Source: an uncultured Pseudomonadales bacterium (GTDB taxonomy: Bacteria > Patescibacteriota > Microgenomatia > UBA1400 > PJMF01). Taken from it: a stretch of 61,416 bases of DNA. The stretch spans positions 1 to 61,416 of the forward strand of contig CAZBEW010000004.1 of the NCBI GenBank assembly GCA_964491115.1, in the 5' to 3' direction. This document shows, piece after piece, positions 17,377 through 18,363 of the stretch. Position 1 is the first letter of the stretch. Each line of letters starts with the position of its first letter. A model generated the notes under the pieces. It saw only the letters and a list, made by a program, of their open reading frames with translations. It did not search any database and was not told the origin of the DNA. The translations under genes and the position numbers were made by a program.

Positions 17377-18363
17377 TTAATCTTGACCAAGATAAAATAT
17401 TTCTTCTTTTAATTCTACTTTAAATTGTTTTTTTACTGCTAGCTGAATTTGAGCAATTAGTTTTTTAACATCCTGAGCTTTAGCGGGCTGCTGGAGTTCT
17501 TCACTCATATTGACCAAAAAAGCAGCGTGTTTGTCACTCACCACAATAGCTCCAACTTGTTGATTTTTCAGCCCAGCCTGGTCAATTAAGAAGCCGGCCG
17601 GAATAAATTCGCTTTGAGCAAACTGGGGAAAAAGTTGTCGCAAGTCATCGGTATTGGGAGGATTGCGAAAAATACAACCAGAACTGGGCAAGTGCAAGGG
17701 CTGCGTCTGCTGTCGACGTTCTTGAGCTTGGAATAATTTTTCTTTAATAATGTGTGGCTGATCTTTGCGCAAAGAAAAAGTAGCAGCTAAAATTACCAAC
17801 CGTTGATCCTCTTGAAACACCGAGTGTTCATAAGCAAACTTGCACATTTCACGTGAAAAAATGACTTCTTTATTTTGTTTCACGTGAAATGCAACAACAC
17901 TTTGCACATAATCACCAATCAGCGTTTTTAGATAATGAGCATTATTGTAAACAGCTCCTCCTAAAGTACCTGGAACGCCAATAAAACCCTCCAAACCAGT
18001 TCCGCCAAAAACAACTGCCTTGTGAACCAGCTGGCTGGTTTTTATGCCTGCTGCTGCTGTAAATACCAGCGCATCTTCTTGATCGCTAAGAATTTGAAAA
18101 TCTCTAATAGCGACTTGCAAAACTAAGCCGCTCACACCCGCATCTGCTATCACTAAGTTGCTTAAGCCACCAACAATCTTCCAAGGAATCTGCTCTTGCT
18201 CACAAAAAACTAAGATTTTCTTGAGCAGCAGCTGATCCTTAACTCGATAATAAATTTCCGCTGGGCCACCAAGTTTAAAATAACTTAAGTCCGCTAAAGG
18301 ATGATTAAAAGACCAGTCTAAATCAGGGAATTTAGCTTTTAGTAATCTTTGATTATTCGTCAT
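17377..18363 (-). CDS. murB: UDP-N-acetylenolpyruvoylglucosamine reductase
   Basis: FKLGGPAE, VGGLSN, GVPGTLGGAVYNNA, SSGCIFRNP, SDKHAAFLVN. Confidence 0.93.
   Translation of the reverse strand: MTNNQRLLKAKFPDLDWSFNHPLADLSYFKLGGPAEIYYRVKDQLLLKKILVFCEQEQIPWKIVGGLSNLVIADAGVSGLVLQVAIRDFQILSDQEDALVFTAAAGIKTSQLVHKAVVFGGTGLEGFIGVPGTLGGAVYNNAHYLKTLIGDYVQSVVAFHVKQNKEVIFSREMCKFAYEHSVFQEDQRLVILAATFSLRKDQPHIIKEKLFQAQERRQQTQPLHLPSSGCIFRNPPNTDDLRQLFPQFAQSEFIPAGFLIDQAGLKNQQVGAIVVSDKHAAFLVNMSEELQQPAKAQDVKKLIAQIQLAVKKQFKVELKEEIFYLGQD
17845..17860. promoter_or_regulatory. parS-like site 1 (inside murB)
   Basis: CATTTCACGTGAAAAA; 13/16 to TGTTTCACGTGAAACA, with a perfect 12-bp core palindrome at 17847-17858. 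Confidence 0.7.
17876..17891. promoter_or_regulatory. parS-like site 2 (inside murB)
   Basis: TGTTTCACGTGAAATG; 14/16 to the parS consensus. Confidence 0.78.

Follow-up and report, generated by a model that had tools for sequence, protein, structure and literature searches.

Paired parS-like cores overprinted on murB at a terminus-proximal locus of a Patescibacteriota genome

Why does murB, the gene for UDP-N-acetylmuramate dehydrogenase, carry two identical copies of the core of parS in an uncultured bacterium of the Patescibacteriota? The stretch of DNA analysed here (the window; 61,416 nucleotides) lies on contig C4 of a 0.77-Mb, 95% complete genome, G000, and its murB contains the 12-mer TTTCACGTGAAA twice, at 17847-17858 and 17878-17889, the two starts lying 31 bp apart. 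Canonical parS is TGTTTCACGTGAAACA; at both murB sites the inner 12 bp of this 16-bp palindrome are perfect, and the mismatches to the 16-mer TGTTNCACGTGAAACA fall at the outer positions. An initial annotation of the window had taken the two cores for ParB-loading sites overprinted on murB, probably close to the origin of replication and about 15 kb from parB. Re-reading the window confirmed the pair in every detail, including the identity of the cores, their spacing and their matches to the 16-mer (Table 1). Here we show that the parS core, its encoding in two reading frames and a canonical-looking ParB (GERRWRA motif, HTH_ParB domain) 15 kb away all stand, and that the supposed proximity to oriC does not. 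From their pattern of conservation, the two murB palindromes appear to be genuine parS cores maintained by selection on DNA, and we propose, with moderate confidence, that they are nucleation (loading) sites for the single ParB of this genome.

Conservation and turnover of the murB cores

Read in the sense of murB, site 1 is translated from the codons TTT CAC GTG AAA as F-H-V-K, and site 2, one base out of phase with site 1, from TT TCA CGT GAA A as (F)-S-R-E-(M); the MurB peptide spanning both is VVAFHVKQNKEVIFSREMCKF. Both predicted read-throughs, FHVK and (F)SRE, were thus recovered. The segment of MurB that bears the sites (residues ~157-173) is variable and tolerant of indels across the order.

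How far the cores exceed chance depends on how strictly they are defined. With up to three mismatches to the 16-mer allowed, the window has 5 matches against a shuffle mean of 1.7, and 10 of 100 shuffles reach 5, which is not significant. None of 100 window shuffles, however, contained the exact 12-mer, and the whole genome holds 3 copies against 0.03-0.09 expected under Markov models of order 0-3 (P(>=3) of 5e-6 to 1e-4). The genome-wide parS scan proposed in the initial annotation therefore finds the 12-mer to be rare, with two of its three copies paired in murB. The genome has six TTTCANNTGAAA sites, half of them with a CG centre. Codon usage, given the encoded peptide, predicts the 12-mer with a probability of 0.056 for FHVK and 0.023 for FSRE (~0.001 jointly). 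The 12-mer encodes two of the three FHVK peptides of G000, and likewise the sole FHVK of G017, a closed genome from a different genus of the same family.

Further evidence came from the codons of murB in 11 lineages of the genus (8 GTDB species and 3 metagenomic lineages), whose MurB proteins are 60-67% identical to that of G000, with the exception of the sister species G004 at 91%. Just 5 of 68 conserved four- or sixfold degenerate murB codons are identical in all 11 lineages, and two of these five are V161 GTG in site 1 and S170 TCA in site 2. These are the sole four- or sixfold degenerate codons within the two sites, and the codons kept there are non-preferred ones (24% usage for GTG and 17% for TCA). 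Synonymous positions are thus over-conserved within both motifs in related murB genes, as the initial annotation had suggested should be checked. A 14-bp perfect palindrome in murB, TCTTTGCGCAAAGA (17762-17775, 70 bp from the pair), was considered as a further site and rejected as a chance match, being conserved in no relative; its loss even in the 91%-identical sister species makes it an internal negative control.

Comparison with relatives also revealed how the sites arose. Site 2 is the older, since a perfect core occupies the same murB position in another genus (G017, L137-139). Site 1 is derived from TTTGACGTGAAA, which encodes FDVK and is still present in the sister genera, through a GAC to CAC change (D to H) at a position that is D, N or T in most MurBs. 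The third perfect core of the genome (G000:C10:2634-2645) lies mid-replichore in a glycosyltransferase gene, where it is again read as FHVK; it was made by a GAG to GTG change (E to V) found in G000 and G004 only, the remaining six species having GGFH[EQ]KYY. Two independent radical substitutions have thus each completed the same 12-mer, indicating that the DNA motif drives the protein sequence. The motif constrains, and has changed, the proteins, and not the reverse.

Within the genus, the MurB tree places lineage L136 at the base, with G000 and G004 in an unresolved three-way split just above it. Since L136 and G000 with G004 have CACGTG at both sites, the perfect pair is likely ancestral in the genus. 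One of the G004 sites matches the 16-mer TGTTNCACGTGAAACA at 15 of 16 positions. Seven of the 11 lineages have TTTCATGTGAAA at site 1 and TTTCACATGAAA at site 2, and G007 combines CATGTG with CACGTG. In all eight species of the genus the murB pair is essentially the sole genomic occurrence of TTTCAYGTGAAA.

A second arrangement is seen in G017 (853 kb), which has only two copies of the 12-mer, 1.2 kb apart and 17 kb from parB, one in murB and one at the 3' end of truB. TruB (G017:C1:553653-554411; also L138-L141) ends in KFHVKK, encoded by a perfect parS core, and its gene is a divergent neighbour of murB; the truB core is kept in a further genus (L140, L141). No truB was found in the 95% complete G000 by tblastn with the G017 protein, and in none of the loci of the genus does truB adjoin murB. 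With the truB core not in G000 but a second core present in murB, the count of two sites has been maintained despite the rearrangement.

Table 1. Features of the window that bear on the paired cores
Feature	Position	Strand	Description
murB (UDP-N-acetylmuramate dehydrogenase), host gene	17377-18363	-	Pfam MurB_C and FAD_binding_4; NCBIfam murB equivalogs
parS-like site 1 (first in murB sense)	17876-17891	+ strand letters	TGTTTCACGTGAAATG; 14/16 to TGTTNCACGTGAAACA
parS-like site 2	17845-17860	+ strand letters	CATTTCACGTGAAAAA; 13/16 to TGTTNCACGTGAAACA
Potential hairpin, 12-15 bp, with the two sites as arms and a 19-nt loop	17845-17895	-	predicted free energy (dG) -19.8 kcal/mol, z -3.5
parB, sole ParB_N gene of the assembly	2086-2907	-	273 aa; ParB_N and HTH_ParB; GERRWRA motif for cytidine triphosphate (CTP)

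A Wzy_C/O-antigen-ligase-like gene lies 3 kb from murB, at 21136-22254, and contains no array of in-frame parS sites.

Chromosomal position and ParB partners

The initial annotation had placed the window near oriC and proposed GC skew and the position of dnaA as checks; both refuted it. In G000, dnaA is on another contig, C3, at ~67 kb. The closed G017 chromosome (853,053 bp) has dnaA at 61.6 kb, parB at 535.1 kb and murB at 552.7 kb, and its cumulative GC skew is lowest at ~60 kb and highest at ~490 kb. Because raw skew is confounded by gene orientation, we compared the third-codon GC (GC3) skew of plus- and minus-strand genes, which showed the plus strand leading from 60 to ~480 kb and the minus strand leading over the remaining circle. 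These data put the G017 origin at ~60 kb and its terminus at ~480-490 kb. Both parB and the sites lie beyond the terminus, by 45-70 kb; their distance from the origin, ~360 kb, is ~85% of the 423-kb replichore.

All large contigs of G000 are collinear with G017 (C4 matching 533-606 kb, C1 486 down to 342 kb and C3 132 down to 0 kb), and the sign changes of the G000 GC3 skew fall at dnaA on C3, marking the origin, and in the initial 20 kb of C1, marking the terminus. An origin in or near the window is ruled out, the skew being of a single sign across the window and all of C4. Collinearity with a closed chromosome, together with GC3 skew, therefore puts the locus in the terminus-proximal part of the chromosome, ~65-90 kb from the terminus and ~85% of a replichore away from dnaA. 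In two further closed genomes parB is likewise distant from dnaA, by 492 kb in G026 (1,049,888 bp) and by 437 kb in G038 (~1.1 Mb), so that in all three closed genomes, which represent three families, it is roughly opposite dnaA, at 76-94% of the half-circle as judged by the distance to dnaA (94% in G026 and ~80% in G038; in G017, where GC3 skew confirms the terminus-proximal position, 89% of the replichore). The murB module, 15 kb from parB and proximal to the terminus, is not a textbook origin centromere.

We then searched six genomes of the order (G000, G004, G006, G017, G026 and G038, three of them closed) for the usual partners of ParB. No ParA was found, PF13614 having no match in five of the six genomes; its sole match in G000 was a MinD-like open reading frame (ORF) on C30, a contig of 3.4 kb. 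Several short contigs of this assembly deviate from the 36-37% GC of the genome, namely C19, C27 and C33 (60-68%), C22, C32, C36 and C37 (46-50%) and C30 itself (42%), and are probably bin contamination. No SMC was found either. PF06470 matched in none of the six genomes, but its control missed two genomes expected to be positive, and it was therefore not relied upon alone; PF02463, whose controls were positive in 14 of 14, matched only RecF-size ORFs, UvrA and ABC ATPases, and SMC head motifs were present in no long ORF. With neither ParA nor SMC, ParB-parS here cannot drive ParA-dependent origin segregation or the loading of SMC.

ParB and the alternative readings of the sites

The ParB_N and HTH_ParB gene that was said to lie about 15 kb from the sites is indeed there, at a distance of 14.9 kb, and linkage between parB and the sites at ~15-17 kb holds in two genera. 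The closest PDB matches of the protein are the Caulobacter, B. subtilis and Thermus ParBs. All 41 relatives encode ParB as well, and it retains the CTP motif and the conserved DNA-contact residues. The N-terminal tail of ParB stimulates ParA; the window ParB has no such tail and starts directly at the ParB_N box.

Alignment to Caulobacter ParB (6T1F), B. subtilis Spo0J, Thermus Spo0J and Noc showed that all six DNA-contact residues common to ParB and Noc (Q162, G170, K171, S172, N178 and R204) are conserved in the window ParB. The four specificity positions, 173, 179, 184 and 201, are S/T/D/G, as against R/T/A/G in Caulobacter ParB; position 201 is thus Gly, as in parS-specific ParB. R173 hydrogen-bonds guanine 1 of parS and is invariant among parS-specific variants and orthologues (PMC7383237). 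We fetched 30 ParB loci from across the order, of which 29 were readable, and found S, P, A, Q, E, T, L, I, N, G, D or V at this position. An aromatic residue (Y or F) two positions further on is conserved in the ParBs of the order. The outer positions of the candidate sites vary as well (CA..AA, TG..TG, GT..TA and TT..AA). Ser in place of Arg173 may mean that the outer G/C of the 16-mer is no longer read, which would fit sites that share only the inner 12-14 bp.

In the mechanism that we propose, the conserved contacts of the helix-turn-helix (HTH) domain, equivalent to the six residues above, would let a ParB dimer recognise the core, with Ser for Arg173 leaving the outer G/C pair of the 16-mer unread. 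Binding of CTP through GERRWRA would come next, and the dimer would close into a clamp that slides onto the flanking DNA. In strong natural parS sites of Caulobacter, conservation is confined to the GTGAAA half (PMC5815017), and half-parS suffices for binding by some ParBs (PMC7022226); given such half-site binding, the cores with one mismatch seen within the genus may still bind ParB.

Several observations weigh against loading by ParB. In 8 of the 11 lineages of the genus the central CpG is gone from one or both cores (CATGTG and/or CACATG), and no perfect core was found elsewhere in the five whole genomes with such CpG-lost cores. All 41 relatives have ParB, yet 35 of them lack TTCACGTGAA, among them G019, despite a recognition helix identical to that of G017. 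Arg173 is Ser in the window ParB, and in none of the 29 readable ParBs of the order is this residue Arg. A parS site normally lies close to the origin, but this locus is remote from oriC, and the usual partners ParA and SMC were undetected in the six genomes of the order.

The main rival is that the conserved unit is a hairpin, in the murB mRNA or as a DNA cruciform, which affects translation, mRNA stability or processing; on balance we regard this as unlikely. The arms of the potential hairpin are complementary in 11 of 11 lineages, with 88% of cells paired, and the predicted stems range from -12.6 to -19.8 kcal/mol (z between -2.7 and -4.9), that of G000 being the most stable and those of the other members of the genus spanning -12.6 to -16.7 kcal/mol. 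A hairpin also accounts for the perfect conservation of the CpG-less variants: TTTCATGTGAAA and TTTCACATGAAA are mutually reverse-complementary, so that the pair stays a perfect inverted repeat. The central pair goes from C-G (G000, G004, L136) through U-G (G007) to U-A (seven lineages), for which the tree needs two or more G to A changes at site 2, or a single such change and a reversal, and pair 11-55 varies between A-U, G-U and U-A. However, complementarity between two copies of the same palindrome is inevitable, and coding constraints alone predict mirrored changes under CpG decay, CAC to CAT being synonymous at site 1 and CGT to CAT (R to H) at site 2 being milder than a change to TGT (R to C). 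The covariation is weak: three stem pairs have changed on both sides, in ~2-3 independent events explicable by coding constraints, the observed values are matched or surpassed in 5 and 12 of 500 shuffles, and the statistics are within the false-positive range stated for the tool. In the sister genera the perfect cores of murB and truB are single and unpaired, and no stable hairpin is predicted there (z -0.2 and -0.5); the third core of G000, in the glycosyltransferase gene, is without a partner.

Still less likely, in our view, is that the sites bind another protein or system that recognises TTTCAYGTGAAA, while the ParB of the order has a different sequence-specific target or none. The absence of Arg173 throughout the order would suit this view, as would the lack of the motif in most relatives with near-identical recognition helices, and without ParA and SMC there is no reason to expect a classical centromere. 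Nevertheless, the motif is the exact universal parS core, and we know of no other protein family that uses it. The six DNA-contact residues conserved in ParB and Noc are retained, and the sites are linked to parB in two genera. We also looked for an alternative target. Neither G000 nor closed G017 yielded an alternative parS cluster in scans for the 16-mer with up to 3 mismatches, GTTWCA-N2-TGWAAC with up to 1 mismatch, TGTTTC-N4-GAAACA and TTTCA-NN-TGAAA. No shared 16-mer (up to 1 palindrome mismatch) recurred within 1.5 kb on either side of parB in 30 relatives, and no perfect palindrome of at least 12 bp recurred in the 40-80 kb around parB-murB in G026, G019, G013 and G035. Such sequences as did turn up were isolated: TATTTCATATGAAATA in G035 (C3, ~353,001, 1.8 kb from parB) and, in the parB-murB neighbourhood, TTTCCCGGGAAA, which has the core of the Noc-binding site (NBS), in G026 (C1, ~501,363) and TTTTTCAATTGAAAAA in G019 (C2, ~54,009). 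These look-alikes may be chance matches or re-specified sites.

Least probable is that the cores are a by-product of conserved peptides and shared ancestry with no function at the nucleotide level: the genus does conserve the peptides FHVK and FS[RH]E, the motif is AT-rich outside its centre and the window test at three mismatches was not significant, but the codon-usage probabilities are low, singly and jointly, GTG and TCA are frozen in 11 lineages in which almost all other four- or sixfold degenerate codons are scrambled, the peptides are themselves derived through the D to H and E to V changes that create the core, and the 12-mer recurs in unrelated genes (truB and the glycosyltransferase gene) as the only other copies genome-wide.

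Beyond the loading of ParB at the murB cores, which we prefer to these alternatives, it is possible, though doubtful, that in this order ParB-parS has been uncoupled from the origin, ParA and SMC, and that a ParB lacking Arg173, acting on a 12-bp core, marks or organises the terminus and does not segregate origins. ParB could then couple termination or chromosome resolution to division, and selection on the sites would have been strong enough to force the D to H change in MurB and the E to V change in the glycosyltransferase. Sites with the parS core beside parB were seen only in the genus of G000 and its sister clade. Our search of the accessible literature on ParB and parS in the candidate phyla radiation (CPR)/Patescibacteria found nothing relevant. 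If this reading is true, bacteria without ParA and SMC possess a conserved terminus-side ParB-parS module, and these ultra-small bacteria provide a natural test case for ParB acting alone and for relaxed ParB specificity. The locus would also be a clean example of the need for a DNA-binding site altering the amino acids of essential enzymes.

Comparison with known ParB-parS systems

The nearest known counterpart is the intragenic chromosomal parS. Lin and Grossman reportedly found, in 1998, that the first parS of B. subtilis lies inside spo0J, and a parS survey by Livny et al. in 2007 is said to have shown an origin-proximal position to be typical. The murB sites resemble the spo0J site in being TGTTNCACGTGAAACA-type palindromes with a perfect TTTCACGTGAAA core, and resemble intragenic chromosomal sites in lying within an ORF, in being few per genome and in their linkage to parB. 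They differ in lacking the outer G/C of the 16-mer and in their ParB, which is without Arg173. Known intragenic sites are, in addition, origin-proximal and accompanied by ParA and/or SMC (PMC7022226, PMC5815017), whereas the sites here are terminus-proximal and neither partner was found.

A ParB without ParA is known from Streptococcus pneumoniae, whose orphan ParB has four parS sites (PMC7022226). There, however, parS is close to oriC and ParB works with SMC and other partners, while here no SMC was found. The CpG-less variants of the genus, TTTCAT/GTGAAA and TTTCAC/ATGAAA, each keep one half of the core, as do the GTGAAA-only sites of Caulobacter and the half-parS GTTTCAC of P. aeruginosa; binding to the sites of those two species has been measured (PMC5815017, PMC7022226) and may, by analogy, extend to the variants here.

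Noc, the ParB paralogue with switched specificity for NBS (ATTTCCCGGGAAAT), offers a third comparison. The window ParB scores best against the Noc model, below the cutoff, and its sites share the A/T flanks of NBS (ATTTC...GAAAT). The core is nevertheless CACGTG here and CCCGGG in NBS, the specificity residues are S/T/D/G and not the Q/K/K/R of Noc, and the N-terminal membrane-targeting extension of Noc is not present.

The paired arrangement was considered as a possible peculiarity of the locus and rejected, core pairs 10-40 bp apart being common across phyla among the matches listed. Both intragenic parS and closely paired cores are thus already known, and as such the murB sites add a member to a known class. 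What departs from known systems is a location on the terminus side, with neither ParA nor SMC found, a ParB that lacks Arg173, and the evidence that selection on the sites has reshaped two enzymes.

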